Below, piece by piece: positions 26,676 through 49,405 of a DNA stretch of 64,000 bases. Source of the stretch: an uncultured Acidobacteriota bacterium (GTDB lineage: Bacteria > Actinomycetota > Acidimicrobiia > Spongiisociales > ZC4RG35). Every line of letters begins with the position of its first letter. Positions within the stretch are counted from its first letter, which is position 1. A model generated the notes under the pieces. It searched no databases and had not been told where the DNA came from. It saw nothing but the letters and a program-made list of their open reading frames with translations. The translations under genes and the position numbers were made by a program. The stretch lies in NCBI GenBank assembly GCA_963828465.1, contig CAWHEU010000027.1, positions 9,309-73,308 of the forward strand. The letters run 5' to 3'.

Positions 26676-28513
26676 TCGAGCTACTCGAGCGCGCCGATCC
26701 GGCCAAGGATCTGCGATGCGGACACGAGTCGGCTCCGGGGCAAGGTCGACGAGCGCATCGGCCTTTCCGCGTCCACTGAGTCCGTCTATAGCCCGGATGA
26801 GGAGACCATGGTTGATCGCTGTCGCCTCATTTGCCGCGGTGGTCGCGGTCGCCGTCCCGGTGGCGCTCCTCACCGATCCTCCATCGGTTTTCGCCCCCAA
26901 TCTCGATGGCCTCGATGCGCATCCTGGCGTTCAAGCGGCAGTACCGCTGGCATCAGGCGGTCTTCAGGCGATGGACGCCGAGGGCGACACGATCTGGGTG
27001 ATGACCACCCTGCAGAACCTCCTCCAAGAGGTGTCTGCTCAGTCCGGAGACATCGAGGCGACCTATCCCATCGACGCCCGCGTCGAGGGCGTGGTCGTCG
27101 GCGGCGGTCGACTCTGGCTGACCAGCCCTGACAACGGCGGCTCAGGTGCTTCGCTTCGACCCCGAGGCCGGCGCCGTCGATCTGATCATCCCAATCGGGG
27201 GAGCTGCCCGGGTGGGCCAACTGGCTCGGGGACAGCCTTTGGGTCGGCAAGGTTCAGGGTGAAGTGATTCGGATCTCCTCCGAGGGTGAGATCCTCGCCA
27301 CGCTTCCCGGCGAGCTCGATCGGCGGCGAGGGGTTGGGTTATCTCTGGGTCAACGACCCTGGCACCGACCTGATCTCCAGCTTGTCCGAGAATGGGCAGC
27401 TCGGCGACATGGTGATACCGACCGAACGGGGTTTGGAGACCATGAGCGGATCGGGAATTCGCCAGGTCGCGGAAGCGGAAGGCCGCCTCTTCCTGCTGGA
27501 TGGCGACCATCCCTGGGGGACCAACCTGAATGTCTACGACCCGACTTCGGGCGAGTTTGGAGCGTTCGCGGGCCTCACTTTCGGGCTTCTCGACCTGATC
27601 GAATTCGATGGCGATCTGTGGGTCACTTCCAGCAGCGATCATCGTGTTGATCCGGATCGACCCGACGAGCGGGGAGCAGCACAGGTACCCGTTGCCCGGC
27701 AAGCCTGGCGGTCTGGTGGTGGCCGATGACGCGTTGTGGGTCACTCTCTATCAGCCTGGAGCTCTGATTCGGCTCGACACCAGCGCCGACCTCATCGAGT
27801 CGAGCCCCATCGTGGTGGACGACTGGAATCGGTTCCCACATCGGCTGCTCTGCACCGGCCCCGCGCGACGCCGGGGGACCAACGATCATCCTCCAACCTT
27901 CAGACTGGATCGACTACGGGTCATGGTCTGTCATCCAGGCCGAGCTATCAGGCGAGGGCTACGTCGTCTGCTCCAACGGCTACGTGGAGGGTGAGACCAC
28001 ACCAGCGACAGCAGGCTGCCGATCTCGAACAGGCTCTGAGCCAGGCCGGAATCTCCGGGCCCTATGTGTTGGCCGCTGCGGTCGACGGGGTGCATGCGGC
28101 CCGTCTCTTTGCCGATGGGCGTGACGATATTGCCGGCATGGTGCTGGTCGACCCGATGCCGGTCGGGTTCCAGGACTTCTACGACGATCTCCTCCCGGAC
28201 CTGGCAGGCCACCCACCGTGGCTCGATCTGGATGCCGAGGTCTCCCAATCTCTCGATGGCTTCGGGAATGTGCCTTTGATCGTGGTCGAACAGGATCCGG
28301 ACTCGGTGTTCCAATCCGGCCAGTTCGTCGAATGGAGTTGGGCCTGAGGCCGCCGAAGCGGTGAACACCTACTGGCAGGACGGGTTGGCCTTCTACGCCG
28401 CGCTCTCGACCGACTCGCGCTCCGTCATCGCCAACGAGTCAGGGCTCGACATGGTGATCTGGGACCACCCCGACCTCGTGATCGAACAGATCCTCGATCT
28501 GCTCAGACGCTGA
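26672..28513 (+). CDS. Membrane-anchored putative anti-sigma/sensor: TM helix, beta-propeller-like repeats, degenerate alpha/beta-hydrolase domain (many frameshifts)
   Basis: ATGA-coupled to the sigma gene; MIELLERADPA start; TM PWLIAVASFAAVVAVAVPVALL; blade-like repeats TIWVM, RLWLT, YLWVN, DLWVT, ALWVT; C-terminal GPYVLAAAVDGV...GMVLVDP...PDLVIEQILDLL. Reconstructed from several ORF fragments. Confidence 0.6.
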
Positions 28514-29686
28514 GGCTCTGCGCCGGCACTTTCTTCTGCGGGTCGACGAAGGGCAGAGCTCGCGGCGACAGCGGTCAGCTCCTCCCCGTCCTCGGTCACG
28601 ACATCGACCCGAGTGCCCGGCGCCGAGAGCCCGATCGGGACCCACATGTACCCGATGTTCTGCTCCATGCCCGGGCGACCAAACTGCGTCGGTGACCCGG
28701 CCCACCTCGACATCCCCCGAGAGCACCGGCCACGGCTGGGACAGTTCGGCCCGCAGCTGGTCGCCTTCGAGGAACATGCCCACCAGCTTGCGATCGACCC
28801 CGTTCTCACGGATGCTCTCCAACGCCGCCTTCCCCAGGTAATCCTGATCCTGTATCTCGACCAGACGCTCCATGCCACTGACATGGAACGGCGTGTCATC
28901 GAGGGTCATGTCCGACCCGTAATTGAAGATCCCGGCCTCGATGCGACGCGGCCTCGCATGGGCGCAATCGGGCGGATGTCGAACTCCTCGCCGGCGGCTG
29001 CCACCGCGTCCCAGATGGCGGCGCCGTCTCCCCGGTCGAGGACATTGATCTCGAACCCGGGAATGGCGGTCCAACCAGTCCGGCTGATCACGACCGGGAT
29101 CCCGTCGATCTCGAATTCGCCCAGCCAGTAGTACTTGATGTCGTAGATGCCGGACCCCGACCAGCTTCTCCAGCGTCTTGGCTGCCAGCGGTCCCTGCAC
29201 CTGCATCGGGTGCACGTCCGGCAAGGTGACCTCCGCATCGAAACGGCCGGCGGCCACGCCCAAGGCATACAGCCCGGCATCCGAGTCGGCCAGCTGCATC
29301 CACCAACGGTTCTCGCCGACGTGAAGCAGGACCGGGTCGTTCACGATCCCGCCGTCGGGGGCGATGACCGGCATGTACTTCCCCTGGCCGACCGCGCACT
29401 TTGTCAGGTCCCGGCAGGTGATGTAGTCGATCAGCCGGTCGGCATCTTTCCCGCTTACTTCGACCGTTCGCTCCACACCCACATCCCACATCGTCACCCC
29501 GTTGACGAGGGCCCAGTACTCGACGTCGGGGTCGTCGTAATAAGCGGGCAGGTACATGTGGTTGTAGATGTCGAAGGAGGTGCAACCCGCGGCCAGGGTC
29601 GACTCGAAGAAGGGTGATCTTCGGTACCAGGGCCCGAAATAGAGAGTGGTGCTCTTCTCCAGCATCTCGCGACGTTCGTTGGCCAC
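28503..29686 (-). CDS. GcvT-family THF-dependent methyltransferase, DmdA-like (several frameshifts)
   Basis: DIYNHMYLP, WDVGVERTVEVSGKDA, TCRDL, GGIVNDPVLL, WWMQLADSD, MQVQGP, ISRTGWT, RRIEAGIFNYGSD, LPFVDP. Confidence 0.8.
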
Positions 29687-29705
29687 CGATGTCCTCCTCG
29701 AATCC

Positions 29706-29719
29706 TGAACGGTGGTTCA
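29706..29719. promoter_or_regulatory. Candidate operator upstream of the DmdA-like gene
   Basis: TGAAC-ggtg-GTTCA, lying between a minus-strand TAGGGT -10-like hexamer and an AGGAGG RBS. Confidence 0.4.
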
Positions 29720-29757
29720 ACCCTAGGGGAGCGCGTTGCCGGCTTGCCCGGCGACCC

Positions 29758-30504
29758 TCACACCGTGTCGGAGCGACTGGAGAAACGGGCCGCGGCGTCC
29801 ATCACGAGCGTGGCTATGGAGTCTGCTCTTCCCCGAACTGGAAACCTGTAGGCCGGCCCGTGGACGTGGATGGCACCGAGGACACGGGTTCCGTCCGCCA
29901 GGACAGGAGCCGCCACCGAGTTGATCCCCTCGGCGAACTCCTCATGGATCCAGCAGTGGCCCGAGACCCTGATCGCCTCCAGCCTGTCCCGGATCTCGCC
30001 GGCATCGACCACCGTGTGCGTCGTATAAGCCTCCAACGGCCGGCTCAGGTAGCGATCGACCTCCTCGGCCGGCCATTGCGCCATCACACAGAGGCCCGAA
30101 GGGCCGATGTGCATCGGCACCATCAGACCGGTGTAGTCACGGACCTGGACGGGGTTGGGGCTCTCCACCTGCACCATGTACTGGATGGTGTATCCGGTCG
30201 GGATGCTGAAGCCGGCGGCCTCACCGAGCTGATCGGACAGCCAGACCAGATGTGGGCGGACCGCGGTGGCGAGCGCAGCGGTGGCATCGATCGCGCCGGC
30301 AAGCTCGACCAGCCCGATGCCAATCGCATACGACGTGCCGTCAGGTCCCCTGGTCACGGCGCCCTGGTCTTCGAGGCTCGACAGCATCCTGGCCACGGTG
30401 GACTTGGGCAGACCGACCCGTGAGGCGAGCTCGGTCACCCCCGAGGGCTCGACGGCCAACGCCTTGAGCACCTGGAATGCGCGGTCGATCGACTGCACCG
30501 CCAT
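29758..30504 (-). CDS. IclR-family transcriptional regulator
   Basis: VQSIDRAFQVL, GLPKSTVARML, EEFAEGINSVAAPV, GAIHVHGPAYRF; TGATG coupling to metF. Confidence 0.92.
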   Translation of the reverse strand: MAVQSIDRAFQVLKALAVEPSGVTELASRVGLPKSTVARMLSSLEDQGAVTRGPDGTSYAIGIGLVELAGAIDATAALATAVRPHLVWLSDQLGEAAGFSIPTGYTIQYMVQVESPNPVQVRDYTGLMVPMHIGPSGLCVMAQWPAEEVDRYLSRPLEAYTTHTVVDAGEIRDRLEAIRVSGHCWIHEEFAEGINSVAAPVLADGTRVLGAIHVHGPAYRFPVRGRADSIATLVMDAAARFSSRSDTV

Positions 30505-31325
30505 CAGGTCACCCTCGACAGCGCTTCGCGATGCCAATCCACGGTGGGCTCGACCTGGTTGAAGGTGAAGATATGGATTCCGGTCATCCTGAGGCCCTCG
30601 CCGCGGCGGGCGAGCGGTTCGACGATCCTGTCGGGCTGGTACCGGCCCGGACGCAGCATTCTCAGGATCGAGCCACGGTTCTTGGCCAGGAACCTCATCG
30701 AATCACCCACGCCGATTCGAGCCCCGATGGTGAGGAGGCGGGCGGGATCGACCGCACCGGGCACGCCAACCTTTATGGGAAGTGTCACGCCATCGGCCCG
30801 GATGGAGGCGATCCAATCAACGATCGTCTCCGGGCTGAAGCACATCTGGGTGACGACATAAGTGGCGAGCGCCTCCTTCTCCAGCAGCGACTGGCGGAGG
30901 CGGTCGGGTGAGATGAGAGGGTGGCCCTCCGGATACCCGGTGATCCCGACTTCGAGAAACGGATGACCGACGGCCGCCATGTCCTCGAGCAGCGAGAGCG
31001 CGTCGTAATAGTCGCCGTGTGGCTGTCCATCGCCCCCGGTGACGAAGACCTGTCCCACCCCTCCATCGTCGAGACGCTTGATGATCGAAGCCAGCTCGCG
31101 GCGGTTCTCGATTGTCCTGGCCGACATATGGGGGACCGCCCGAAGACCTCGGGCCTGGAGCTCGATGGCCAGATCCAGGGTGGGGCTCATCCCCCGGGTG
31201 GGCGAGGCGGTCACGGAGACCGTCGAGCCCGGCTCGATCGACGAGGTCTTCTCCAGCACTCCCTCGAGGGGGATCACCTCGAAGTCGGCCCCGGTGAGGA
31301 GAGCTCTCTCCAGGACGTCACTCAT
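30504..31325 (-). CDS. metF: Methylenetetrahydrofolate reductase family protein
   Basis: VPHMSAR, VFVTGGD, GITGYPEGHP, VTQMCF, GIHIFTFN. Confidence 0.85.
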   Translation of the reverse strand: MSDVLERALLTGADFEVIPLEGVLEKTSSIEPGSTVSVTASPTRGMSPTLDLAIELQARGLRAVPHMSARTIENRRELASIIKRLDDGGVGQVFVTGGDGQPHGDYYDALSLLEDMAAVGHPFLEVGITGYPEGHPLISPDRLRQSLLEKEALATYVVTQMCFSPETIVDWIASIRADGVTLPIKVGVPGAVDPARLLTIGARIGVGDSMRFLAKNRGSILRMLRPGRYQPDRIVEPLARRGEGLRMTGIHIFTFNQVEPTVDWHREALSRVT

Positions 31326-31327
31326 GC

Positions 31328-32866
31328 TCAGACATCCGAGTCCGGGAAAGAGGCCTTGCGCTGAGCCACCCACTCGGTCAGCTCCGCCTCGATGGCTTCG
31401 TCCAGGGAGGGCGGCTCGTACTCATTGAGCATCTTGCGCCAGATCGTGTGCGCCCTCGAGGCGGCCTCCTGGGATCCCGCTTCGAGCCATTGCTCGAAGC
31501 TGTTGTTGTCCGCGGTGGCGCTGCGCCAGAAGGCGTTCTCGAAGTTGGCCAGGGTGTGGGCGTTCCCCAGGAAATGCTGTCCAGGCGGATTGTCGAGGAG
31601 GGCGTCGAGAGCCTGACCGTTGTCCGAGAGGTCCAATCCTCCGATCAGTGCTTCGGCCATCGATGCTTGATCCGCGTCCAGGACGAACTTCTCGTACCCC
31701 ATCACCAGCCCCCCCTCCAGCCAGCCCGCGGTGTGGAGCACGAAATTGACCCCGGCGAGAAGGGTCGGAAGAAAGGTGGCAGCGGATTCGTAGGCCGCTT
31801 GGTAATCAGGGGTCTTAGCCGCCGTGAGATTCCCACCGCTGCGGAAGGGGACACCAAGTCGCCGGGCCAGCGCTGCCATCACGAAAAGAACGATCGCCGG
31901 CTCGGGTGTGCCGAACGTGGGAGCACCCGACTGCATCGAGATCGAGGAGGCGAAGGACCCGAACACGACGGGTGCACCGGGCCGCACCAACTGGCAAAAG
32001 GCCATGCCGGCCAACGCCTCGGCAAGGGTCTGAGTTGCGGTCCCGGCCACCGTGACCGGCGCCATCGCCCCGGAGAGGATGAAGGGAGTGATGAGGCACG
32101 CCTGGTTGTTCTCGGCGTAGACCTTGGCCGAGCCGAGCATGTTGTAGTCCCAGCTCATCGGGCTGTTGGCGTTGCACAGAGACAACAGGACCGTCTTCCC
32201 CTCGTCGATGTCGCCACCGAACAGGATCCTGACCATGTCGACCGTGTCCTGGGCCCGCTCGGGCGCGGTGACCGAGCCCATGAACGCGCGGTCGTGATTC
32301 TTGATATGGGCAAGGACCATGTCGAAGTGCCGTTTGTTGACCGGCAGGTCGACCGGCTCGCACAGGGTCCCGCCACCGTGATGCAGTGCGGGCGTCAGGT
32401 GAGTCAGACGGGCGAAGTTCTCGAAGTCGGCGAGCGTGGCGTAGCGACGACCTCCATCCAGGTCGCGGACGAAAGGAGATCCGTAGGCCGGGGCGAAGAC
32501 GAGATGGGGGTCGCCGATCACGACGTCGTGCTCGGGGTTCCGGGCGTGCTGGGTGAAGGTCGTTGGCGCGGTTGCCATGAGACTCCTGGCCAGCCCGGCA
32601 GGGAATCTGACCCGGGTCTCGGTGACCTCACATCCACCCTCGCGGAAGATCTCCAGCGCCTCGGGGAAGTTGCCCACCTCGATGCCGACTCTCTCGAGGA
32701 GCAGATCGGCATTGGATTCGATCAGGGAGAGCCCCTCCTCGTCGAGCACCTCGACCGGTGACAGCTTTCGAGTGAGGAACGGCACCGACTCGATGGCCCG
32801 AGCGGTCCTTGCTGCCTGCCGGGCGGCGCGGCCACCGCCCCGACGTCCCGTGCTGGTCTGTTCCAT
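31328..32866 (-). CDS. Trimethylamine methyltransferase (MttB) superfamily, non-pyrrolysine; candidate glycine betaine:corrinoid methyltransferase
   Basis: FAPAYGSPFV, GGTLCEPVD, FMGSVTA, NANSPM, GAMAPVT, SGAPTFGTPE, RSGGNLTAAK, HTAGWLEGGL; no in-frame TAG. Confidence 0.9.
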   Translation of the reverse strand: MEQTSTGRRGGGRAARQAARTARAIESVPFLTRKLSPVEVLDEEGLSLIESNADLLLERVGIEVGNFPEALEIFREGGCEVTETRVRFPAGLARSLMATAPTTFTQHARNPEHDVVIGDPHLVFAPAYGSPFVRDLDGGRRYATLADFENFARLTHLTPALHHGGGTLCEPVDLPVNKRHFDMVLAHIKNHDRAFMGSVTAPERAQDTVDMVRILFGGDIDEGKTVLLSLCNANSPMSWDYNMLGSAKVYAENNQACLITPFILSGAMAPVTVAGTATQTLAEALAGMAFCQLVRPGAPVVFGSFASSISMQSGAPTFGTPEPAIVLFVMAALARRLGVPFRSGGNLTAAKTPDYQAAYESAATFLPTLLAGVNFVLHTAGWLEGGLVMGYEKFVLDADQASMAEALIGGLDLSDNGQALDALLDNPPGQHFLGNAHTLANFENAFWRSATADNNSFEQWLEAGSQEAASRAHTIWRKMLNEYEPPSLDEAIEAELTEWVAQRKASFPDSDV

Positions 32867-32927: not shown

Positions 32928-34880
32928 TCACCCGGGGCGTCTCCGCCGCCGCTCTCCTGGCTCGGGTCGAGGTGGCATGTCCACCACCTTGGAGAGGAGC
33001 GGGTAGGGGTCGGTCTTGTGGGGTATGGCCAAAGCAGCCACGAAATGCTCCTGGAATCGCGGCTCGACGGCGGTCTCCACCTTCTCGATCTGGTTTGTGA
33101 CCTCCTCGATCTCGCTGCGTGCGACACCGGATAGGAGGGCCATCATCGCCCCGACTCCGGCGGCGTTTCCCGCCGCCGATACCCGGTCGAGATCGCAGTC
33201 GGGGATCATCCCGAGCACCATGGCGTACTTCGGGTCGATATGGCTCCCGAAGGCGCCCGCCAGCCTGATCTCGTCGACCTGATCGACGCCGTAGTGGTCC
33301 ATCAGGAGCCGGGCTCCGGCGTGAAGCGCGGCCTTGGCCAACTGAACGGCGCGCACATCGTTCTGCGTCACCTCTATGAGTGGCTCGGCACACAAGACGT
33401 ACGAGAAAGTGCGGTCCGAAGCCACCACTCGTGACGACGGATTGGCCGGTGGGCGGATGACCCCGTCGGTGTCGATCACTGCGGCTAGATACAGCTCTGC
33501 AATCGCCTCGATGATCCCCGAACCGCAGACCCCGGTGACGGCCCCGAAGTCGAAGCCGGCCTCGTCCGACCAAGGCTCCTGGCCGATTACGGAAAAACGG
33601 GGCTCCAGAGTCGCCCGATCCACGCGGACCCGCTCGATCGCCCCTGGCGCTGCTCGTTGCCCGGCGGAGATCTGCGCTCCTTCGAACGCGGGCCCGGTCG
33701 GGCTCGAGGCGGCCAGGAGGCGTTCTTGATTCCCGAGCACCAATTCGGCGTTGGTACCCACGTCGACGAGCAATTGCAGACGCTCGCCACGATGCGGGCC
33801 TTCGGACAGCACCACCCCGGCGGCGTCGGCGCCGACATGGCCGGCGATGCAGGGAAGCGAATAGACCCTGGCACCGCGGTGGACCTGCAGTCCGAGGTCG
33901 GAGGCGGGCGTGTCGAGGGCCGACGTGGTGACCAACGCAAACGGAGCGGTGCCCAGCTCCCGTGGGTCGAGCCCGAGGAGCAGGTGGTGCATGATCGGGT
34001 TGCCGACAACACTCAGTTCCAGGACATCACCTCGATCGACACCGGCCTCGGTGACCAACTCACCGAGCAAGTCGTCGAGGGCGCCTCGCACCACGTCCGT
34101 CAGCCGGCTCGCACCGTCATCGTTCATCATCACGTACGAGACACGGCTCATCAGATCCTCACCAAACCCGATCTGAGGATTCATCACGCCACTCGTGGCT
34201 AGCACCGACCCGGTCAGGAGATCGCAGAGGTGGCCGGCGATGGTGGTCGAGCCAACATCGAAGGCCACCCCGAGAGCGAGATCACGGAAGCCGGGCCAGA
34301 TCGCGATCAGATCCCTGGCATGACGCACCGCGACAGTCACCGCCCAGTTCCCACTTCGGAGGGTCGTCTGGAGATCTCTCAGGACCGGAGGGTCCACCAC
34401 CAGTCCGCGCAGACCCCACTCCTGTTCGAGAGCGGCGAGGAGACGCTCCAGGTCTCCGGTCGGGCTGGCCAGATCGGGCTCCGGTACCTCGACGTAGTGA
34501 AGCCGGACCACGGGATCTACCGGCAGGGCGGCCACACCGGCCCGCTTGCGCACCACCTGGCGATGGACCTGGCTGTCCGCCGGGACATCGATGACGACGT
34601 CCTCCACGATCCGGGCGGCACAACCCAGTCGGTGGCCGGCGCCCAGCGGTCGCCGACCCTGATAGTCGGTCTCGGTGGGTCCGGGCTCGGAGAGACGGTC
34701 GGCACGGGCCTCGACGCCGGGTCGGCTGCCCATGACCACCTGGCAGCGCCCGCATATTCCCCGGCCGCCGCATACCGAGTCGAGGTCCACTCCGAGGGCC
34801 CGGGCGGCGTCCAGCACTGTGGTGCCCTCGGGAAACGCTCCGCGTCGCCCCGAAGGGCTGAACACCACCTGACGCGTCAC
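32928..34880 (-). CDS. ASKHA/DUF4445 ATP-dependent reductive activator of corrinoid proteins with N-terminal [2Fe-2S] domain (RamA/RACE-like)
   Basis: CGGRGICGRC...RLGC ferredoxin; FDVGSTT, NPQIGFGEDLMSR, GNPIMHH, DVGTNAE, TGPAFEG, CGSG, LAGAFG, GNAAG. Confidence 0.9.
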   Translation of the reverse strand: MTRQVVFSPSGRRGAFPEGTTVLDAARALGVDLDSVCGGRGICGRCQVVMGSRPGVEARADRLSEPGPTETDYQGRRPLGAGHRLGCAARIVEDVVIDVPADSQVHRQVVRKRAGVAALPVDPVVRLHYVEVPEPDLASPTGDLERLLAALEQEWGLRGLVVDPPVLRDLQTTLRSGNWAVTVAVRHARDLIAIWPGFRDLALGVAFDVGSTTIAGHLCDLLTGSVLATSGVMNPQIGFGEDLMSRVSYVMMNDDGASRLTDVVRGALDDLLGELVTEAGVDRGDVLELSVVGNPIMHHLLLGLDPRELGTAPFALVTTSALDTPASDLGLQVHRGARVYSLPCIAGHVGADAAGVVLSEGPHRGERLQLLVDVGTNAELVLGNQERLLAASSPTGPAFEGAQISAGQRAAPGAIERVRVDRATLEPRFSVIGQEPWSDEAGFDFGAVTGVCGSGIIEAIAELYLAAVIDTDGVIRPPANPSSRVVASDRTFSYVLCAEPLIEVTQNDVRAVQLAKAALHAGARLLMDHYGVDQVDEIRLAGAFGSHIDPKYAMVLGMIPDCDLDRVSAAGNAAGVGAMMALLSGVARSEIEEVTNQIEKVETAVEPRFQEHFVAALAIPHKTDPYPLLSKVVDMPPRPEPGERRRRRPG

Positions 34881-40797: not shown

Positions 40798-41738
40798 ACC
40801 AGGTCCTCGTCTTCGTCGAGCACCAGGAAGGGATGCCGCTCGAGACCTCCCTTCAGGCGACCACCCTGGCCGGCACCCTGGGTGACGTGTCCTCGGTGAG
40901 CGTTGGCGTATGTCATATCGGAGGCGTGGCTCGACACTTCGCGATCGAGCATCCGATGCTGTCCGACTACGCCCCGGAGGCAATCGCCACGTCTCTGGTC
41001 CAGCTGATCGGAGCCGAGTCGCCATCCGCCGTGTTCGCGTCCGGGACCGAGCGGGGCAACGAGGTGATGGCACACGTGGCCGCCCTGCTCGACTTCCCGC
41101 TCGCAACGAATGTGACCGAAGTTCGGCCCGGCGACGAGTCCTGGGAGCTGACCCGGACACGTTGGGGTGGGAGCCTCCTCGAAGAGGCGTCACTCACCGC
41201 GCCAGTGAAGCTGGCCACAGTGGCACCTCATGCGTTCGAAGCTTCCGACGCGTCGGGCGGCGTCGATGCAGAGACCTTTGAGCCGGACCTTCCCGAGGCC
41301 CTGGAGCGGACCCGGGTGGTGGAGCGTGTCACCATTGCCGAAGGGATCACTCTCACCACCGCCCCGGTAGTGGTCAGTGGGGGCCGGGGAGTCGGGTCGC
41401 CCGAGGGTTTCGGGATCCTCGAAGAGCTTGCAGGATTGTTGGGTGGCGCGGTCGGTTGTTCTCGGGTGGTCACCAACAACGGGTGGCGGCCCCACTCCGA
41501 TCAGGTCGGTCAGACCGGAACCCGCGTCGCTCCGAATCTGTATGTCGCCTGCGGTATCTCCGGTGCGGTCCAGCATTGGGTCGGGATGATGGCCTCGAAG
41601 AACGTGCTGGCCATCAACAACGACCCCGAAGCTCCAATGGTGACCAAGGCCGACTACGCCGTGATCGGTGACCTACACCCAATCCTCGAGGCGGTGGTGG
41701 CGGAAGTGAAACGAAGGAAGGGCGTGGCCCTCTCGTAA
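40794..41738 (+). CDS. etfA: Electron transfer flavoprotein alpha subunit
   Basis: VVSGGRG, AVGCSR, QVGQTG, YVACGISGAVQHWVGM, AINNDPEAP. Confidence 0.92.
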   Translation: MNQVLVFVEHQEGMPLETSLQATTLAGTLGDVSSVSVGVCHIGGVARHFAIEHPMLSDYAPEAIATSLVQLIGAESPSAVFASGTERGNEVMAHVAALLDFPLATNVTEVRPGDESWELTRTRWGGSLLEEASLTAPVKLATVAPHAFEASDASGGVDAETFEPDLPEALERTRVVERVTIAEGITLTTAPVVVSGGRGVGSPEGFGILEELAGLLGGAVGCSRVVTNNGWRPHSDQVGQTGTRVAPNLYVACGISGAVQHWVGMMASKNVLAINNDPEAPMVTKADYAVIGDLHPILEAVVAEVKRRKGVALS

Positions 41739-41790: not shown

Positions 41791-42630
41791 CTACCACAGC
41801 GAGCCGGCCGACACCCGCAGGTCCTCCATCGTGATCCCGCGGGCGGCGTCGCTGCAGAGGAACAGGGCGAGGGCGCCGATCTCGGTCGGGGAGATGAGAC
41901 GGCCCTGGGGGTTGGTCTTCTCCACGTCGGAGATGTACTCCTCCCCGGAACGGCGCTCCTGCTTTTCGGCGATGTCGGACATCCACTCGCGGCCGAATGA
42001 GGTGTCGACCCAGGTCGGGCTGATTGCATTGCAGGTGACGCCGTGCGGGGCACCCTCGAGGGCGACACACGTGGTCAGCCCGACTACACCGGCCTTGGAT
42101 GCGCAATAGGCGCCTGACGTGGCCGCACCGACCGACGCCGCTGTCGAGGCAATATTGATGATCCGGCCCCACCCTCTCTCGATCATGCCGGGCAACGCCC
42201 GCTTGATCGCCCGGTAGGTGCCGGTGAGATTGACATCGATCACCTTGTCCCACAGGGCGTCGGGATGCCCGACGATGGTTTGCTCGGCAGTGATACCAGC
42301 GGCATTGGCCAGGATGTCGACCGGGCCAAACCGGTCGAGTGTCGCCTGATGAAATGCCTCGACCGAATCATCGGACGTGACATCGAGATTGAGGCCGAGG
42401 CACTCAACCCCTTCCCCCTCGATGACCGAGACGGCATGATCCATCTGCTCCTGCCCCGGGACGTGGACCACCTCACCTTCGGTCTTCGAGCCGGCGGAAA
42501 GGAGAGACCCGATGCTGACATTGGCACCCTGCGAGGCAAACGCCTGAGCCATTGCCAGCCCCATTCCTGACGCCCCACCGGTCACCATGGCGGTCCTGCC
42601 CGCCAGGAAGCGATCAGCCACTTCCCTCAC
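41791..42630 (-). CDS. Short-chain dehydrogenase/reductase (classical SDR)
   Basis: TGGASGMG, NAAG, NIAS, YCASK, NAISPTWVDT; 19 bp downstream of betB. Confidence 0.88.
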   Translation of the reverse strand: MREVADRFLAGRTAMVTGGASGMGLAMAQAFASQGANVSIGSLLSAGSKTEGEVVHVPGQEQMDHAVSVIEGEGVECLGLNLDVTSDDSVEAFHQATLDRFGPVDILANAAGITAEQTIVGHPDALWDKVIDVNLTGTYRAIKRALPGMIERGWGRIINIASTAASVGAATSGAYCASKAGVVGLTTCVALEGAPHGVTCNAISPTWVDTSFGREWMSDIAEKQERRSGEEYISDVEKTNPQGRLISPTEIGALALFLCSDAARGITMEDLRVSAGSLW

Positions 42631-42649: not shown

Positions 42650-44110
42650 TTAGTACGGCGCCTCGACGTCGCCCATCTCCACATACACGCTCTTCACCTG
42701 CGTGTAGTGGTTGATGGTGACCAGGCTGTTCTCCCGGCCGATCCCGGACTGCTTGTAGCCGCCGAAGGGCATCTCGATCGGGGTGATGTTGTAGTTGTTG
42801 ATCCAGGTCGTTCCCGCCTCGAGCCGGGCGACCACCCGATGGGCACGCTGGATGTCCTTCGTGAACACTCCCGCCGCCAGGCCATACGGAGTGTCGTTGG
42901 CCCGGGCAATGACATCGTCCTCGTCGCGGAAGCTGAGCACGGACATGACCGGGCCGAAGATCTCCTCCTGGACGATGGACATGTCGTCGGTGCAGGCATC
43001 GAACACAGTTGGCTCGACGAAGAAGCCGCCCTCCAAGGACGGGTCAGAGGGACGCTCCCCACCGATTACCACGGTCGCCCCAGCCGTCTTGCCGGCGTCG
43101 ATGTAGGAGAGAACCTTGTCCATGTGGTCGCGCGAAATGAGCGCTCCGACATGGGTGTCGGGGTCCATCGGGTCGCCGATCTTCATCTTTGAGGTTCGCG
43201 TCACCAGACGGTCGAGGAACTCGTCATGGATCTCCTCGTGGACATAGACCCTGGTCCCGTTGGAGCAGATCTCACCCTGGGTGTAGAAGTTCGCCATTAG
43301 GGCGGCTGAGACCGCATTGTCGAGATCAGCGTCGTCGAAGATGATCAGAGGGCTCTTCCCACCCAACTCGAGGGTGACGTGCTTCAGCGTGGCGGCAGCA
43401 TTGGCCATGACGATCTTCCCGGTACCGACCTCACCCGTCAGCGACACCTTGGCGACGTCGGGATGGGACACGAGAGCCTCCCCGGTGCGGTGGTCGCCCT
43501 GAACGACGTTGAACACGCCGTCGGGGAGTCCGGCCTCGGAGTAGATCTCGGCAAGTCTCAGTGCCGTGAGGGGGGTGAGCTCCGCCGGCTTGAACACCAT
43601 CGAATTGCCGCAGGCCAGGGCAGGGGCAGACTTCCAACAGGCGATCTGAATCGGGTAGTTCCAGGCCCCGATCCCGACGCAAACACCGAGCGGCTCACGA
43701 CGGGTGTAGGCCCAGGCACTGCCCAGATCGAAGGTCTCACCGTGGATGCTCGCCGCCAGGCCGGCGTAGTACTCGATGGCGTCGGCGCCGGACAGCACAT
43801 CAACCGCAATGGCCTCCTGGATCGGCTTCCCGGTGTCGAGGACCTCGAGCCGGGCCAGCTCCTCGTTGTTGTCACGAAGCAGGCCAGCAGCGCGGTTCAG
43901 GATCCGGCCCCGCTCCGCGCCAGACAACTGGCGCCAGACCTCGAATCCTTCAGCGGCGGATGCCACAGCCCGATCGACGTCGGCGGGCCCAGCATGCTGA
44001 ACCTGGCAGATCTCCTCGCCAGTGGCGGGGTTGATCGTGGCAAATGTCTCCCCCGAGACGGCATCGAGACGGCCACCATCTATGTAGAGCTGCTGGGTGT
44101 CAAGACTCAT
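42650..44110 (-). CDS. betB: Betaine aldehyde dehydrogenase
   Basis: [68 protein letters not shown]. Confidence 0.9.
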
Positions 44111-44134: not shown

Positions 44135-46063
44135 TCAGTGGGCAGGAGTCGGCGGTTGAAGCCTCGCGGCCCAGGCTTGGGTCAGCCGATCGAGGATGAT
44201 CGCCATCACCACGATGGCGAAACCGACCTCGAAACCCAGACCGGTCTCGCCGCGAGTCACCGCCCGAACCGTCTCGAAGCCGAGCGCTCCACCCCCGACC
44301 AGACCAGCGATGATCACCATCGCCAGCACCATCATGATCACCTGGTTGACCGCCGCCAGGATCGTCGGAGCGGCCAGAGGGATCCTCACCCCGAACATGG
44401 TTTGGCGGCGAGTGGCACCGAAGGTCTCCGATGCCTCGACACTCTCCTCTGGCACCTCCTTGATGCCGAGGGCGGTGATCCGGATACCGGGGACAATGGC
44501 GTAAAGAACGGCGGCGATGATGCCCGGTACCTGACCGACGGTGAAGAACAGGATCACCGGAATGATGAACACGAAAGAGGGGATGGTCTGGAGGGCGTCG
44601 AGGATCGGGGTGAGCACCTTTTCAACTCTGGGTCTGCGGCCGGCCCAGATCCCGACCGGGATGGCTATGGCAACGGAGATGAAGGCCGCAGCCAGCACCT
44701 GGACCAGGGTCTGCAGGGACAGTTCCCACATCCCGATGAGACCGACCATGAGGAGCGACGCACCGGCAAAGACGGCCAGCCCAATCCCCTTCAGCCTCCA
44801 GCAGAGGATGGCAGTCGCGGCGATGAGCACCGGCCAGGCCACAGTGACGATGAGGAAGTCACGTGCCGGGATGAGCAGCCCGGCGACGACGAAATCGTTC
44901 ACAGGGCGGGTGATGAAGGAGAGATTGTCCCGGCCCCAACGCACAAAGGTGTCTACAGGGTCGAAGATCCTGACTTCCCACACCGCTGGAAACTCGACCC
45001 AGCCCATGGCCCGCCCCACCACGATCCCCCCGCCGATCAACGCCAGCGCCGTGATCACGTAACGCCGCGATGCAGGTCGCGTCCTGTCGGCGAAGGCCAG
45101 CGACCGCCCCACCCGGTCGAGCACCATCGCCACCGCCACGATGGCCAGACCGGCGGCCAGTCCCCGCCCGGTGCGTCGCTGGTTCAGCGCCTCGAGCACT
45201 TCCTGCCCTAGCCCTCCAGCCCCGAGCAACGTAGCGAGGACGACGATGCCCAAGGCCATCATGATCGTCTGGTTGACCCCGGTCATGATGAATGGCATGG
45301 CCATCGGCAGCTGCACTTTGAACAGCGTTTGCCGCCCCGTGGAGCCGTACATCTCCGCCGCCTCCACCGACTGACGGGGTACGCCCTGGATACCAAGGGT
45401 GGTCAGCCTCACTGCCGGGGGCAGGGAGTAGATCACGGTTGCGATGGTGGCCGGGACGCGCCGGATGCCGAACAGGAGAACGATGGGAATGAAATAGACG
45501 GGAGCGGGGATGGTCTGCATCGCGTCGAGGACCGGTCTGATGGCACGATCTACCCGCGGCGAACGGGCCGCCCACACGCCCAATGGGATCCCGATGGCGA
45601 GTGCGATCAGGACCGCGATCGTCATCAGCGAGAGCGTCTCCATCGTGGTGTCCCAGAGGCCGACCAGCCCTGGATAGAGGGTGGCGGCCACGGCGACGAG
45701 GGCCGTTCTCCAGTCACCGGTCCTGAAGATGACGAGAAATACGGCAAGGGGGAGGACAAACCAGGGGAGCCATTTGAGGAACGTCTCGATGGTGGTGAGG
45801 CCCCAGTCGACCGCAGCTGACAGGGGTATGAAGAAGCCGGTGAAGATCGGATGGATCTGGCGGTTCTCCCGAAGCCACGTGGAGAATTGATCGACGGGGC
45901 CCGAGAAATAGGTGTCCCACAGGGCAGGGACCGTGGGCGAGGTGACCAGGACCTGGAGGAGGAGGATGCCGACGATCACGAAGATCCACCAGGCCCGGAT
46001 CCGGAACCGCCCGGCTGTCTCGTCGACCAGGGCGACGTCAGCGGGTTGGAGGACGTCGGTCAT
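44135..46063 (-). CDS. proW: Glycine betaine/proline-type ABC permease with two tandem ProW domains
   Basis: Two copies of DAxQTIP..., EAA-like loop, P(M/L)AxPxI and VNQ..MM motifs; ATG at 46063 overlaps the proV stop. Confidence 0.87.
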   Translation of the reverse strand: MTDVLQPADVALVDETAGRFRIRAWWIFVIVGILLLQVLVTSPTVPALWDTYFSGPVDQFSTWLRENRQIHPIFTGFFIPLSAAVDWGLTTIETFLKWLPWFVLPLAVFLVIFRTGDWRTALVAVAATLYPGLVGLWDTTMETLSLMTIAVLIALAIGIPLGVWAARSPRVDRAIRPVLDAMQTIPAPVYFIPIVLLFGIRRVPATIATVIYSLPPAVRLTTLGIQGVPRQSVEAAEMYGSTGRQTLFKVQLPMAMPFIMTGVNQTIMMALGIVVLATLLGAGGLGQEVLEALNQRRTGRGLAAGLAIVAVAMVLDRVGRSLAFADRTRPASRRYVITALALIGGGIVVGRAMGWVEFPAVWEVRIFDPVDTFVRWGRDNLSFITRPVNDFVVAGLLIPARDFLIVTVAWPVLIAATAILCWRLKGIGLAVFAGASLLMVGLIGMWELSLQTLVQVLAAAFISVAIAIPVGIWAGRRPRVEKVLTPILDALQTIPSFVFIIPVILFFTVGQVPGIIAAVLYAIVPGIRITALGIKEVPEESVEASETFGATRRQTMFGVRIPLAAPTILAAVNQVIMMVLAMVIIAGLVGGGALGFETVRAVTRGETGLGFEVGFAIVVMAIILDRLTQAWAARLQPPTPAH

Positions 46064-47082
46064 TGCTCGGGCTCGATCGCCTTGGCCACCGCCCGGCGAT
46101 CCACCACCCCGACCTGTTTCCCGTCCTGGTCCTCCACCCAGATCTCGGTCTCGTCGTCGAGCAGGGCCGGCAGCACCGTCTCGATGGTGTCGTCGAGCCG
46201 AACCGTCCTGCCGTTGGCTGTGCCGACTCCCTCTTTGAGAACCGCCGCCGTAGTCAGCACTTTGGCCTTGGGGATCTCCTTGGTGAATTCCCGCACGTAG
46301 TCGGTGGCGGGATCGCTGATCAGTTCCGTTGCAGTGCCCACCTGGTCGAACCCGCCGTCTTTCATGATGGCGATGCGATCCCCGAGTTTGATCGCCTCGG
46401 AGAAATCGTGGGTGATGAAGACAATGGTTCGCTGCAGCGTCTCTTGCAGTCGGATCAGCTCGTCCTGCATGTCGCGCCGGATCAGCGGGTCCAGCGCGGA
46501 AAAGGGCTCGTCGAAGAACATGATCTCCGGATCCACGGTGAGTGCCCGGGCCAGACCAACACGCTGCTGCATCCCACCGGACAACTGTTGGGGGAAGCTC
46601 TGTTCCCATCCCTTGAGTCCGACGACCTCGAGCACCTTGGTCGCCCGCTCGTAGCGCTCTGCCTTGTCGATGCCCTGCACTTCGAGGCCATAGGCGGCGT
46701 TGTCGATCACTCGCCGATGGGGGAAGAGACCGAAATGCTGGAACACCATCGACATCTTGTGCCGACGTACCTGACGCAGCTCGTCGTCGGTCATCGCTGT
46801 CAGGTCCTCGCCGTCGAGGACGACCTTGCCCTGCGTCACGTCATTGAGACGGGAGACGCAGCGGATAAGAGTCGACTTGCCAGAGCCGGACAGGCCCATG
46901 ACGACGAACGTCTCGCCTCTGGCGACCTCGAAGGAGACGTCGCGCACACCGACGGTACAGCCGGTCGCTTGCTGCACCTCCTCACGGGATGCGCCGCTCC
47001 CGGCCATCTCGATTGCCTTGTCGGGCTTAGCACCAAAGACTTTCCAGATGTGCTCGACCGACAGGCACACGTCGCCGGTCAC
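46060..47082 (-). CDS. proV: Glycine betaine/proline ABC ATP-binding protein
   Basis: MGLSGSGKSTL, SMVFQHFGLFPH, LSGGMQQRVGLARAL, FDEPFSALDPLIRRDMQ, FITHD. Confidence 0.92.
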   Translation of the reverse strand: MTGDVCLSVEHIWKVFGAKPDKAIEMAGSGASREEVQQATGCTVGVRDVSFEVARGETFVVMGLSGSGKSTLIRCVSRLNDVTQGKVVLDGEDLTAMTDDELRQVRRHKMSMVFQHFGLFPHRRVIDNAAYGLEVQGIDKAERYERATKVLEVVGLKGWEQSFPQQLSGGMQQRVGLARALTVDPEIMFFDEPFSALDPLIRRDMQDELIRLQETLQRTIVFITHDFSEAIKLGDRIAIMKDGGFDQVGTATELISDPATDYVREFTKEIPKAKVLTTAAVLKEGVGTANGRTVRLDDTIETVLPALLDDETEIWVEDQDGKQVGVVDRRAVAKAIEPEQ

Positions 47083-47165: not shown

Positions 47166-48185
47166 ATGAAAAAGAGAATCTGGATCCTGATATCGGTGAT
47201 GGCACTGCTTTTGGCCGCATGCGCCGACGACGGTGGCACGGCCACCACCGCGGCCGGCGACGGTGACACGGCGACGACCGAAGCCGCCGCGGAGGGTGGA
47301 GACACCACGGCCGCGGCATCTGGTGGCGGCGAAACCATCAACATCGTTGCCAACCCTTGGACGGCCTCGGCGCTCAATGCCGAGATCGCCGCTCAGTTGA
47401 TCGAGGCGGAGCTCGGTAACGACGCCGAGGTCGTCGCCATCGACGAGAACACCATGTTCACCGGCCTTTCGGATGGATCCCTCGATGTCGTGCTCGAGGT
47501 CTGGCCCTCGGGTGTGGTCGCCGAGGAGCAGGCCTTCATCGACGACGGCAGCGTTGTCGACATCGGCGAGCTCGGGGCGATCGGCAAGATCGGCTGGTTC
47601 ACGCCGCAGTACGTGATCGAGGCAAACCCGGAGCTGGCCACGTGGGAGGGCTATACCGATCCCGAAGTGGCGGCGATGTTCGCCACCGCCGAGACCGGTG
47701 AAAATGGTCGCTTCTTGGGAACCGACCCCTCTTACTCCCAGTACGACGAAGCGATCATCGAGAACCTGGAGCTCCCGTTCCAGGTCGTCTTCTCCGGAAG
47801 CGAGGCGTCGACAGTCGCCGAACTCGATGCCAGAGTCGCCGCGGAGGAGCCGATCCTCATGTACTGGTGGACCCCGACCGCGGCCGTGGCCCAGTACGAC
47901 CTCGTGAATGTCCTTCTGCCGGAGTACAACGAGGACTGCTACGCCGATCCGGCCGCCATCGACTGCGACTACCCCGAGGACGTGCTCACCAAGTACGCCT
48001 CGGCCCAGCTCGCCGACAAGGCGCCGAACGTGCAGTCGTTCCTCGAGAAGTTCCAGATCACTACCGAGGATCAGCTGGGCATGCTGCCTGCAGTCGAGAC
48101 AGAAGGCGAGGACGCCGCCGATGTCGCGGCCCAGTGGATCGCGGACCATGAGGACGTCTGGTCGGCCTGGTTGGCGGACCAGTAG
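47166..48185 (+). CDS. proX: Quaternary-amine ABC substrate-binding lipoprotein (ProX/OpuAC family)
   Basis: Lipobox LLLAAC, Thr/Ala linker, NPWTAS, LEVWPSG, GWFTP, FSGSE, YWWTPT. Confidence 0.83.
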   Translation: MKKRIWILISVMALLLAACADDGGTATTAAGDGDTATTEAAAEGGDTTAAASGGGETINIVANPWTASALNAEIAAQLIEAELGNDAEVVAIDENTMFTGLSDGSLDVVLEVWPSGVVAEEQAFIDDGSVVDIGELGAIGKIGWFTPQYVIEANPELATWEGYTDPEVAAMFATAETGENGRFLGTDPSYSQYDEAIIENLELPFQVVFSGSEASTVAELDARVAAEEPILMYWWTPTAAVAQYDLVNVLLPEYNEDCYADPAAIDCDYPEDVLTKYASAQLADKAPNVQSFLEKFQITTEDQLGMLPAVETEGEDAADVAAQWIADHEDVWSAWLADQ

Positions 48186-48204: not shown

Positions 48205-48232
48205 GGGAGACGGCCCTTCGGGGCCGTCTTCC
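48205..48232 (+). terminator. Hairpin terminator after proX
   Basis: GGGAGACGGCCC-TTCG-GGGCCGTCTTCC: 12-bp stem with one G-U pair and a C(UUCG)G tetraloop. Confidence 0.75.
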
Positions 48233-48269
48233 TTGTCAGGCGACGACAACCCGCGTATCCTCCCTCGAA

Positions 48270-48320
48270 AGCGCCGATTTGATCCACAGCTTGCGGGCGC
48301 TCAAGAAATGCGGCTAAAGC
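48270..48320 (+). ncRNA. SAM-II (SAM-alpha)-like riboswitch
   Basis: AGCGCC-GATTTG-atccacag-CTTGC-G-GGCGCT-caagAAATgcg-GCTAAAG has the SAM-II hallmarks (P1 stem, GAUUU, UUGC, GCUAAA) and sits upstream of a homocysteine methyltransferase. Confidence 0.78.
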
Positions 48321-48397
48321 GTCGGGATGGAAGAACCGCCCGGCACTCGCTGCGGCGGTTTCCTCGTTTGGGGCCGCCTTCACAACAGGAGACGGAG

Positions 48398-49405
48398 ATG
48401 GCCCACCAACCCGACACAAACACGACGTTCACCGACCTGCTCGCCGACCACCCCTATCTGATAGCCGATGGGGCGATGGGGACGACGCTCTTCTCACTCG
48501 GCCTCGAGGGCGGAGGCTGTCCCGAGTTGCTCAACGTAGAAGAGGGCGACCTCGTCGAGAAGGTCCATCGCAGGTTCATCGAGGCCGGCGCCGACATCGT
48601 CCTCACCAATACCTTCGGCGGCAATCGGCTCCGTCTCGACCTCCACGAACTCGGCGACCGCGTCGCCGAGTTGAACCAGGCCGGCGTCGCGGTGGCAAGA
48701 CGGGCCGCAGACCTGGCCGATCGCCCGGTGGCGGTCGCAGGGAGCGTCGGGCCTACCGGTGAGCTGTTCGAACCGCTCGGCACCCTGTCCCATCAGCGCG
48801 GCGTCGAGGTGTTCACAGAGCAATGCGAAGCGTTGGCCGACGCCGGTGCGGACGTGATCTGGATCGAGACCATCTCCTCGTACGAGGAGCTCACGGCGGC
48901 GGTCGAGGCCGCGACCGGAACCGGTCTCCCCATTGCGGCCACCCTGAGCTTCGACACCGCCGGGCACACCATGATGGGCATCCATCCCCGGGACTTCGGT
49001 CGGTGGTGGTTGGGGCACCCGGAGGTCACCGCGATCGGGGCCAACTGCGGGATCGGCCCTGGAGACGCCGTTGCGGCGGCTCATGCCATCGGCGAGGTGG
49101 CGCCGGATGCGGTGACCATCACCAAGGCCAACTGCGGAATCCCCTTGTATCAAACAGAAGGCGGCTTGACCTACCCGATCGGACCGGAGGGGATGGCCGA
49201 CTACGTCGAGCTCGCCCTCCGCTCGGGGGGGCGGATCGTCGGTGCATGTTGCGGGTCGACTCCGGACCACACGGCCGCAATACGGGAAGCGGTCGATGGC
49301 TTCCTGGCCGCTGAGCGTCCCAGTTTCGACGAGATCCGTGATCGGCTCGACGCCTCGGTGCCGAAGGCCACGGTGGGGACCAGGCGCGAGGGCCGCCGCC
49401 GCTAG
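48398..49405 (+). CDS. Stand-alone homocysteine S-methyltransferase (Bmt / split-MetH Hcy module)
   Basis: ADGAMGT, AGADIVLTNTFG, AGSVGPTG, IWIET, GANCG and GACCG zinc-ligand motifs; CAGGAG RBS. Confidence 0.88.
   Translation: MAHQPDTNTTFTDLLADHPYLIADGAMGTTLFSLGLEGGGCPELLNVEEGDLVEKVHRRFIEAGADIVLTNTFGGNRLRLDLHELGDRVAELNQAGVAVARRAADLADRPVAVAGSVGPTGELFEPLGTLSHQRGVEVFTEQCEALADAGADVIWIETISSYEELTAAVEAATGTGLPIAATLSFDTAGHTMMGIHPRDFGRWWLGHPEVTAIGANCGIGPGDAVAAAHAIGEVAPDAVTITKANCGIPLYQTEGGLTYPIGPEGMADYVELALRSGGRIVGACCGSTPDHTAAIREAVDGFLAAERPSFDEIRDRLDASVPKATVGTRREGRRR

Follow-up and report, generated by a model that had tools for sequence, protein, structure and literature searches.

Probable Acidimicrobiia version of the cobalamin-dependent glycine betaine demethylase MtgBCD(E) within a betaine uptake and catabolism island

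Described systems and the locus under study

Anaerobes (Desulfitobacterium hafniense, Methanolobus) reportedly carry a glycine betaine system made of MtgB, MtgC and MtgA, described by Ticak et al. in 2014. The subject of this report is a 64,000-nucleotide stretch of DNA from an uncultured bacterium (contig CAWHEU010000027.1 of assembly GCA_963828465.1; "the window"), which between positions 28439 and 49405 carries what is probably the Acidimicrobiia version of an aerobic cobalamin-dependent glycine betaine demethylase, MtgBCD(E), together with its helpers, within an island of betaine uptake and catabolism genes. The window lies on contig C27 of a 3.07-Mb, 29-contig metagenome-assembled genome (MAG) that is estimated to be 92.3% complete and 4.8% contaminated.

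The closest described system is that of Ruegeria pomeroyi, in which MtgC and the bidirectional MtgD serve both betaine demethylation (with MtgB) and methionine synthesis (with MtgE), and in which mtgC and mtgD mutants can no longer use betaine and become methionine auxotrophs (Mausz et al. 2025, PMC12478193). The MtgBCDE proteins of that organism are accompanied by RamA, DUF1638 and MetF2, the last of which is strongly induced. The same paper states that the MtgBCDE genes are co-located in Sinorhizobium meliloti and other bacteria, that mtg genes of other marine bacteria are often close to dimethylglycine and sarcosine genes, that mtgE seldom lies close to mtgBCD, and that Actinomycetota account for 5% of the mtgC reads from the ocean (PMC12478193). 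In Phaeobacter inhibens, growth on betaine is impaired in mtgB1 and mtgC mutants (Hammer et al., 10.64898/2025.12.19.695462), and a split methionine synthase works with a RamA-like protein and DUF1638, the latter genetically tied to B12 reactivation (Price et al., 10.1101/192971).

The initial annotation of the window, made from its letters before any of the searches reported here, had proposed that one free corrinoid protein acts as a hub that takes methyl groups from betaine and gives them to tetrahydrofolate (THF) or homocysteine. Orthology and gene context do support loading by MttB and unloading to THF and homocysteine, but this hub is the model already published in 2025 (PMC12478193), and the interpretation is therefore partly supported: right in substance and already in print. 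The accompanying statement that the genes of the described systems are not all in one locus is contradicted by the published S. meliloti co-location, which together with the Actinomycetota reads puts much of the novelty claim out of date (PMC12478193). Its remark that no actinobacterial example has been characterized still holds in the literature searched, where we found no paper on such a system with MttB in Acidimicrobiia and met the term MtgBCD only in PMC12478193 and 10.64898/2025.12.19.695462.

Comparison with MtgBCDE and related systems

Profile matches and identity to the S. meliloti locus identify in the island an MtgB, an MtgC, an MtgD, an MtgE, a RamA-like activase and a DUF1638 protein, and there is also an extra methylenetetrahydrofolate reductase (MTHFR) paralogue in the place of MetF2, though this copy is not orthologous to that of S. 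meliloti. Amino acid identities to the S. meliloti proteins are 75% for the corrinoid protein, 65% for the pterin methyltransferase, 60% for MttB, 56% for the activase, 52% for PF13769, 51% for DUF1638, and 48% for the homocysteine methyltransferase against bmt. The S. meliloti stretch is annotated as bmt, a ferredoxin, an MttB-family protein, a cobalamin-binding protein, DUF1638, a 'virulence factor' (PF13769), an MTHFR C-terminal-domain protein, MTHFR, a methyl-THF:cobalamin methyltransferase and an ASKHA protein. In that record (CP090106.1, labelled pSymB, 3.72 Mb) the PF13769 gene overlaps the start of the MTHFR C-terminal-domain (MetV-like) gene that precedes MTHFR.

The R. pomeroyi/S. 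meliloti systems thus share with the island a parts list that includes an extra MTHFR, and they likewise have dimethylglycine-demethylation neighbors (PMC12478193). The differences are that the MtgBCDE host is a marine proteobacterium, whereas the island's host belongs to soil-type Acidimicrobiia known here from sequence; that the core of the island is a single collinear operon; that its MTHFR is of another type than that of S. meliloti; and that MetH co-exists with the cassette. An mtgE-like gene lies within 30 kb in 22 of 44 genomes of the class, whereas mtgE is usually distant in the MtgBCDE paper (PMC12478193). The split methionine synthase of P. inhibens resembles the island in its separate corrinoid, pterin and homocysteine modules and in its RamA-like and DUF1638 proteins, but its genes are scattered and essential for methionine, whereas those of the island are clustered with MttB in a genome that also has MetH (10.1101/192971).

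The MtgB/MtgC/MtgA system of anaerobes has the same three-component chemistry, and MttB of the window reaches 402 bits to 2qne and 9yce. The island differs from it in having DUF1638, PF13769 and aerobic-type partners (a dimethylglycine dehydrogenase (DMGDH) linked to electron-transfer flavoprotein (ETF), and betaine-aldehyde dehydrogenase), and its corrinoid protein falls below the cut-offs of the anaerobe MtgC models (NF047996, 213.9 against 370 bits; NF047995, 177.9 against 310 bits). The D-x-H-x-x-G motif of this protein, which we take to be the His-on cobalamin motif, is invariant in 15 sequences. The corrinoid protein of Paracoccus aminovorans (Rhodobacterales) is 74.1% identical to that of the window.

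Gene organization of the island

Genes were called from a list of open reading frames (ORFs), a check of third-position G+C, and Pfam and NCBIfam scans. G+C is 64–67% across the whole window, and the third-position values mark one clear gene per stretch. Every gene of the originally listed content could be named by Pfam and NCBIfam and is contiguous and in frame. The features, with their main profile scores, are as follows.

28439-29686, minus strand, GcvT-family DmdA-like folate-binding methyltransferase (PF01571, 68.8 bits; alternative start 29665)
29758-30504, minus strand, IclR-family regulator, penultimate operon gene (IclR_C 96.2, HTH_IclR 54.8 bits)
30504-31325, minus strand, divergent MTHFR (PF02219, 42.5 bits)
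31328-32866, minus strand, non-pyrrolysine MttB-family methyltransferase, MtgB-like (PF06253, 710.8 bits)
32928-34880, minus strand, RamA/RACo-like activase with an N-terminal 2Fe-2S ferredoxin domain (RACo_C_ter 289.2, Raco_middle 163.3, RACo_linker 95.1, Fer2 26.7 bits)
34887-35783, minus strand, pterin methyltransferase, MtgD-like TIM barrel (PF00809, 95.3 bits; PRK07535, 359.7 bits, cut-off 259)
35780-36091, minus strand, small PF13769 'Virulence_fact' protein (PF13769, 69.2 bits)
36088-36699, minus strand, DUF1638 protein (PF07796, 94.9 bits)
36696-37403, minus strand, free corrinoid protein, MtgC-like (B12-binding PF02310, 105.4 bits; B12-binding_2 PF02607, 65.1 bits)
37404-37528, no strand, divergent intergenic region of 125 bp with an 8-nt inverted repeat
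37529-40036, plus strand, dimethylglycine/sarcosine dehydrogenase-like (DMGDH-like) flavoenzyme that has a folate-binding GcvT domain (DAO 166.9, FAO_M 57.4, GCV_T 226.5, GCV_T_C 27.5 bits)
40033-40797, plus strand, EtfB (PF01012, 107 bits; GTG at 40033 overlaps the DMGDH stop)
40794-41738, plus strand, EtfA (ETF_alpha 114.6, ETF 82.5 bits)
41791-42630, minus strand, short-chain dehydrogenase/reductase (SDR) (adh_short_C2, 172.8 bits; no NCBIfam model over its cut-off)
42650-44110, minus strand, betaine-aldehyde dehydrogenase (NF009725, 819.9 bits, cut-off 593; TIGR01804, 712.9 bits, cut-off 668.6)
44135-46063, minus strand, fused ProW-ProW permease of a betaine/choline ATP-binding cassette (ABC) importer (two BPD_transp_1 domains; TIGR03416, 479.9 bits, cut-off 363; ATG at 46063 overlaps the ProV stop)
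46060-47082, minus strand, ProV ABC ATPase (TIGR01186, 347.5 bits, cut-off 326.6)
47166-48185, plus strand, OpuAC-type betaine/choline-binding lipoprotein (PF04069, 148.6 bits; signal peptide, lipobox-like L-A-A-C)
48398-49405, plus strand, homocysteine S-methyltransferase, MtgE/Bmt-like (PF02574, 208.4 bits; PRK07534, 373.1 bits, cut-off 338)

Nine genes form a minus-strand operon that runs from 37403 down to 28439 in the order corrinoid protein, DUF1638, PF13769, pterin methyltransferase, activase, MttB, MTHFR-like, IclR and GcvT/DmdA-like. The junctions from the corrinoid protein through IclR are tight or overlapping: each junction among the first four genes (corrinoid protein to pterin methyltransferase) is a 4-base overlap, the MTHFR gene starts 2 bases past the MttB stop, and the IclR ATG at 30504 shares one base with the MTHFR stop. 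This arrangement is not due to chance, since the seven-gene core occurs in the same order in 22 other loci (below). The start originally given for the island, 28503, falls within the GcvT-like gene, 64 bases in from the end of that gene at 28439.

The DMGDH-like gene, etfB and etfA diverge from the operon, with etf starts that overlap the preceding stops; the DMGDH-like gene has the same divergent position in four of the loci surveyed below (L007, L008, L015 and L042). A second minus-strand unit comprises proV, a fused double proW, and the betaine-aldehyde dehydrogenase and SDR genes, and a final plus-strand pair, the OpuAC-type lipoprotein and homocysteine S-methyltransferase genes, ends exactly at 49405. 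The transporter genes expected from the initial description as ProVWX are present, but its 'ProW' is a single polypeptide of 642 aa that contains both of the permease domains.

The ORF list placed the starts of six genes too far upstream; likely starts are 32866 (MttB), 48398 (homocysteine methyltransferase), 30504 (IclR), 31325 (MTHFR), 40033 (EtfB) and 40794 (EtfA). The 95-residue N-terminal extension that the list gave to MttB runs into the activase gene and can be dismissed.

The IclR protein is likely the regulator of the operon. The 125-bp divergent promoter region between the corrinoid protein and DMGDH-like genes contains a perfect 8-nt inverted repeat (37422-37429 and 37453-37460, 23 nt between the arms), so that 37422-37460 is a candidate IclR operator. 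Rfam at its gathering thresholds gave no hit in the window, and hence no cobalamin riboswitch was found there. A promoter/terminator scan found a single promoter-like site, compared with a mean of 2.0 in shuffled sequence, and is not informative.

Methyltransferases and the cassette MTHFR

The MttB reading frame is open under translation table 11 with no in-frame stop and so has no pyrrolysine codon; with its PF06253 match this bears out the original description as a non-pyrrolysine MttB. Its score against the pyrrolysine trimethylamine model TIGR02369 (258.6 bits) is below the cut-off of 525, no in-frame TAG was found, and it is below every NCBIfam equivalog cut-off. Against the PDB it scores 662 bits to 4yyc, 402 bits to the glycine betaine methyltransferases 2qne and 9yce, and 133 bits to the pyrrolysine-type 7xcl. 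The genome has a single copy of the MttB family and likewise one activase, one DUF1638 and one PF13769. The N-terminal domain of the activase carries a Cys motif.

The last gene of the operon had been called DmdA-like. Its best NCBIfam match is indeed DmdA (NF009133) and its closest PDB chain is 3tfh (158.6 bits, against 66.8 bits for GcvT), but the NF009133 match is made in two stretches and at 225.5 bits is below the family cut-off of 410. A similar gene lies downstream of IclR in two other loci (L001 and L003).

The MTHFR encoded by the cassette had been called MetF, and it does match PF02219, but it is a divergent MTHFR whose oxidative direction is deduced from its surroundings. It is closest to S6MTHFR and not to the MetVF type, judging from its sequence (closest PDB entry 7xg9, which is S6MTHFR, 109.3 bits, against 30.9 for canonical MTHFR). 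S6MTHFR, from Sphingobium lignivorans SYK-6, is a type 4 enzyme that oxidizes the CH3-THF made by demethylases, and L48, R78 and P268 have been named as required for this oxidation (PMC11868366). Like it, the cassette MTHFR is paired with a demethylase that would yield CH3-THF; the partner of S6MTHFR is a LigM-type demethylase, whereas that of the cassette MTHFR is corrinoid-dependent (PMC11868366).

Distribution of the cassette

We compared 80 MttB loci and scored the cassette as present where the corrinoid protein and the pterin methyltransferase both exceeded 60% identity. Both are found in 39 of the 80. Among these 39 cassette loci the activase occurs in 38, PF13769 in 35, MTHFR (after MttB) in 32 and DUF1638 in 30; 22 have all seven genes, in every case in the order seen in the window. 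The same order occurs in eight further loci, mostly of Ilumatobacteraceae. The cassette hosts, as labelled, are Acidimicrobiia, Actinomycetes, Gaiella, Chloroflexota/Limnocylindrales, and Alpha- and Gammaproteobacteria. The synteny survey of Acidimicrobiia that the initial annotation had called for was run, and an MttB ortholog (at least 61% identity) was present in 49 of the 301 genomes sampled from the class.

In an 82-row MttB tree (unrooted, from a quick search) the phylum labels need four changes where the minimum is three. The Pseudomonadota, including S. meliloti, form one clade, and the window lies inside an Acidimicrobiia clade. This argues for a long residence of the cassette in the phylum, to the extent that such a tree can speak to it, as opposed to a recent import from Alphaproteobacteria.

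Ten Chloroflexota loci (L010-L013, L017, L018, L020, L023, L024 and L027) encode an MttB about 70% identical to that of the window with none of the cassette genes and have ABC ATPase genes downstream of MttB. They form one clade (100*) in a group of 24 rows to which the Acidimicrobiia clade of the window also belongs, and their MttB may represent an old transfer or a paralogue with another set of partners.

Host genome and habitat

The window had been attributed to an apparent actinobacterium, and a marker check agrees with this: RpoB, encoded on contig C6, has its best identities (86 and 84%) to Acidimicrobiia MAGs among the 80 matches listed. The closest MttB loci (93, 86 and 78% identity) are likewise in Actinomycetota or Acidimicrobiia MAGs. 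An alphaproteobacterial host carrying the arrangement already described, the alternative named at the outset, is not what was found, as all 80 of the listed RpoB matches are to Actinomycetota. The lipoprotein signal on the OpuAC-type binding protein and a broken F420H2-dependent quinone reductase gene upstream of the island both suit an actinobacterial host.

Fourteen public DNA sequencing runs from eight studies, which share 0.21–0.47 of the sampled words with the window, are labelled as soil or outdoor metagenome. Among 664 contigs from RNA libraries, 24 are at least 99% identical to the window, 138 are 95–99% and 502 are 90–95% identical, and the contigs of four such runs cover 27–30 of 30 bins at 90% identity or more, mostly at 90–95%. 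These contigs are sequences of relatives present in such libraries, as opposed to transcription of this operon.

Function and alternative readings

The genome encodes a full-length MetH (1234.5 bits, above the cut-off of 1010.85), immediately downstream of which is a second, weakly matching MTHFR-like gene (contig C4, 66425-70598). With these two genes at hand, the island is best read, from its gene content, as betaine catabolism and not as the sole methionine synthase, and the methionine branch would be optional here. Of six further genomes in the genus, three have no MttB ortholog, as would suit a catabolic trait of the accessory kind, and an accessory trait of betaine catabolism with methionine formation as a side branch is how the island is best read. 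PF12225 has no match in the host genome. Short MetE-like (PF01717) matches lie on contig C25 and at C27:817-1812, just outside the window.

The homocysteine methyltransferase is where the assignment to MtgBCD(E) meets its most serious competitor. It scores 161.6 bits to the MetH structure 1q7m and 60 bits to human betaine-homocysteine methyltransferase (BHMT), and the cysteines in its A-N-C-G and G-A-C-C-G motifs are presumably those expected for the zinc site. At E ≤ 1e-40 it is found in 51 of the 301 sampled Acidimicrobiia genomes, and a hand comparison places it together with the MttB ortholog in 44 of the 49 genomes that have the latter: in 22 the two genes are no more than 30 kb apart on one contig, in three they are farther apart, and in 19 they are on different contigs. 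This co-occurrence ties the enzyme to the system and does not distinguish a corrinoid-fed module from a direct BHMT. It would be expected of any betaine-catabolic enzyme, and the family name of the NCBIfam model whose cut-off it passes (373.1 against 338 bits) is betaine--homocysteine S-methyltransferase; its gene directly follows that of the betaine-binding protein on the same strand, 11 kb from the corrinoid protein gene, and with MetH present a split methionine synthase is not needed. The enzyme could on these grounds be an independent zinc-dependent betaine-homocysteine methyltransferase, with betaine itself as its methyl donor and no involvement of the corrinoid protein, so that the island would hold two independent first demethylation steps. 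We consider this rather doubtful: the protein is far nearer to the homocysteine domain of MetH than to human BHMT, and Mausz et al. argue that Bmt of the S. meliloti type is MtgE, that it does not have the residues with which human BHMT binds betaine, and that betaine use does not require it (PMC12478193).

Two other readings concern the MttB and the operon as a whole. The MttB superfamily includes several characterized specificities (PMC12478193), other Acidimicrobiia genomes have two to five MttB paralogues, and the failure of the window's MttB to reach any equivalog cut-off would suit an enzyme for another methylated amine (proline betaine, carnitine, gamma-butyrobetaine, choline, phosphocholine or similar) in a cell that handles betaine otherwise. 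That is unlikely, however, for the only MttB of a genome, one whose neighbors make betaine (betaine-aldehyde dehydrogenase) and consume dimethylglycine (DMGDH-like), whose nearest named solved relatives are glycine betaine methyltransferases, and which has the MttB next to mtgC in S. meliloti as its ortholog. Far less probable still is that the cassette is mainly a biosynthetic split methionine synthase with betaine genes that are its neighbors by accident. The homologous corrinoid, pterin and homocysteine modules of P. inhibens, with their RamA-like and DUF1638 proteins, do form a methionine synthase (10.1101/192971), but in this genome there is a MetH with its own MTHFR neighbor, MttB and an MTHFR paralogue lie inside the operon while the homocysteine module lies outside it, and the absence of the MttB ortholog from half of the six congeners fits accessory catabolism.

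Several observations weigh against an MtgBCD(E) demethylase, or at least against parts of it. The function of the island is deduced here from its genes, and the link to R. pomeroyi and P. inhibens runs by way of S. meliloti, which the text of PMC12478193 itself assigns by homology. The PDB search of MttB took in no characterized proline-betaine, carnitine, gamma-butyrobetaine or phosphocholine relatives, so that substrate specificity rests on context. The residues L48, R78 and P268 of S6MTHFR are S, T and T in the cassette MTHFR (alignment read by hand), and with these not kept it is context that suggests the oxidative direction; the protein also has no match to the MetV-like plus MetF pair of S. 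meliloti. No SoxB sarcosine oxidase reached its cut-off in the genome search. The MAG that includes the contig has an estimated contamination of 4.8%, and rpoB is on a different contig. Finally, profile searches of the 92.3%-complete genome gave no match for CobQ (TIGR00313) or CobM/CbiF (TIGR01465), in which case the system would have to run on corrinoid taken up from outside; MetH and the island may both need such a supply, and the organism may be a corrinoid auxotroph. The genome encodes at least two cobalamin-dependent systems.

PF13769 and DUF1638

PF13769 is present in all 49 Acidimicrobiia genomes with an MttB ortholog and in five of the 252 others among the 301 sampled, bearing in mind that kin among these are not independent. 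Its 35 occurrences in the 39 cassette loci span four phyla, and the S. meliloti locus has it as well. It is not mentioned in the main text of PMC12478193, and no paper was found by its accession. An AlphaFold2 (AF2) model with pLDDT 87.8 had no match at E ≤ 0.001 in a Foldseek search against the PDB, and in a wide VIA-align search its best Z was 3.5, with none of 48,161 chains at Z ≥ 5. A Bacillus subtilis control genome has a PF13769 match over the cut-off. In seven loci of Actinomycetes and Acidimicrobiia (L028, L029, L031, L035, L040, L052 and L070) PF13769 comes directly after the corrinoid protein, with no DUF1638 detected in the locus.

In DUF1638, residues C13, H42, D72, C73, H95 and C96 are invariant in 25 sequences. 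Its AF2 model is an alpha/beta domain with pLDDT 92.9, for which Foldseek gave no match at E ≤ 0.001; the best Z in the wide VIA-align search was 8.6, to generic alpha/beta folds, and none of the six chains at Z ≥ 8 stands out. The PDB sequence search returned nothing meaningful for it and the ESM Atlas no usable match.

DUF1638 is fused in frame to a RamA-like protein in one sequence (P0034, 865 aa) and to a Cys-rich PF12225 (MetV-like) domain in another (P0027), and many other DUF1638 'fusions' are single, partly frameshifted predictions. The apparent DUF1638-PF13769 fusions of two Chloroflexia MAGs with long contigs (L026:5837-6868 and L074:6181-7212) are frameshifted reads of two genes: each is a 343-aa ORF that results from a frameshift close to the 3′ terminus of DUF1638, while the DNA retains the stop/start overlap. 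The long PF13769 hits P0004 and P0005 contain out-of-frame stretches. A 444-aa DUF1638-PF13769 fusion in Ilumatobacter coccineus (P0023) is in frame, but the two domains are in different frames in all eight related loci, and for this reason fusion is not counted as evidence for a DUF1638-PF13769 pair. Complex prediction with the pterin methyltransferase, the corrinoid protein, DUF1638 and PF13769 as partner gave 0.00 in both runs, without controls, and is uninformative on binding.

The conservation and models of PF13769 and DUF1638, and the fusions of DUF1638, are leads that point to a redox or protective function when cobalamin is reactivated. As a tentative proposal, which we would put at somewhat less than an even chance, PF13769 could, together with DUF1638, be a subunit that the aerobic machinery of corrinoid methyl transfer cannot do without, the pair being a dedicated electron-delivery or protection module with which the RamA-like activase can keep cob(I)alamin alive in oxygen-respiring cells.

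Flanking genes

Genes for an aldo-keto reductase and a Gfo/Idh/MocA protein adjoin the island. Farther upstream on the plus strand, the F420H2-dependent quinone reductase (PF04075) is split over two frames (25543-25884 and 25733-26077), as is an extracytoplasmic function (ECF) sigma factor (region 2 in 26104-26481, region 4 in 26457-26675); these split genes (25543-26675) are either pseudogenes or the result of local assembly indel errors. The roughly 1.8 kb directly upstream of the island (26676-28438) has a weak coding signal, and six ORFs tried there gave no Pfam match. It may hold an anti-sigma factor gene, a suggestion made because of its position after the ECF sigma factor.

Proposed pathway and implications

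The following pathway is drawn in all its steps from homology and context. The ProVW/OpuAC transporter would import betaine or choline, and betaine-aldehyde dehydrogenase would carry out the final step of betaine formation. The single MttB would move one betaine methyl group to Co(I) of the free corrinoid protein, leaving dimethylglycine, from which the DMGDH-like enzyme and ETF would remove further methyl groups. The pterin methyltransferase would pass the methyl group of the corrinoid protein to THF, and the cassette MTHFR paralogue would convert the resulting CH3-THF to CH2-THF. The RamA-like activase would repair oxidized Co(II), probably with help from DUF1638 and PF13769. The MtgE/Bmt-like enzyme would draw on the same methyl-corrinoid to make methionine, a side branch given the presence of MetH.

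The island is an unusually tidy actinobacterial case of a system known since 2025. The most interesting leads that it offers are PF13769 and DUF1638; the former is a conserved part that the main text on the published model does not discuss (PMC12478193). If correctly assigned, the island takes a recently described betaine demethylation route beyond the marine proteobacteria into soil Acidimicrobiia and, by synteny, also into Actinomycetes and Chloroflexota, for which no characterized example was found in the literature searched. The compact operon offers a clean parts list for reconstitution. If the reading is true, betaine turnover in soil would depend partly on vitamin B12, and organisms like this host, in which no cobalamin-synthesis markers were found, would rely on the corrinoid of their neighbors.

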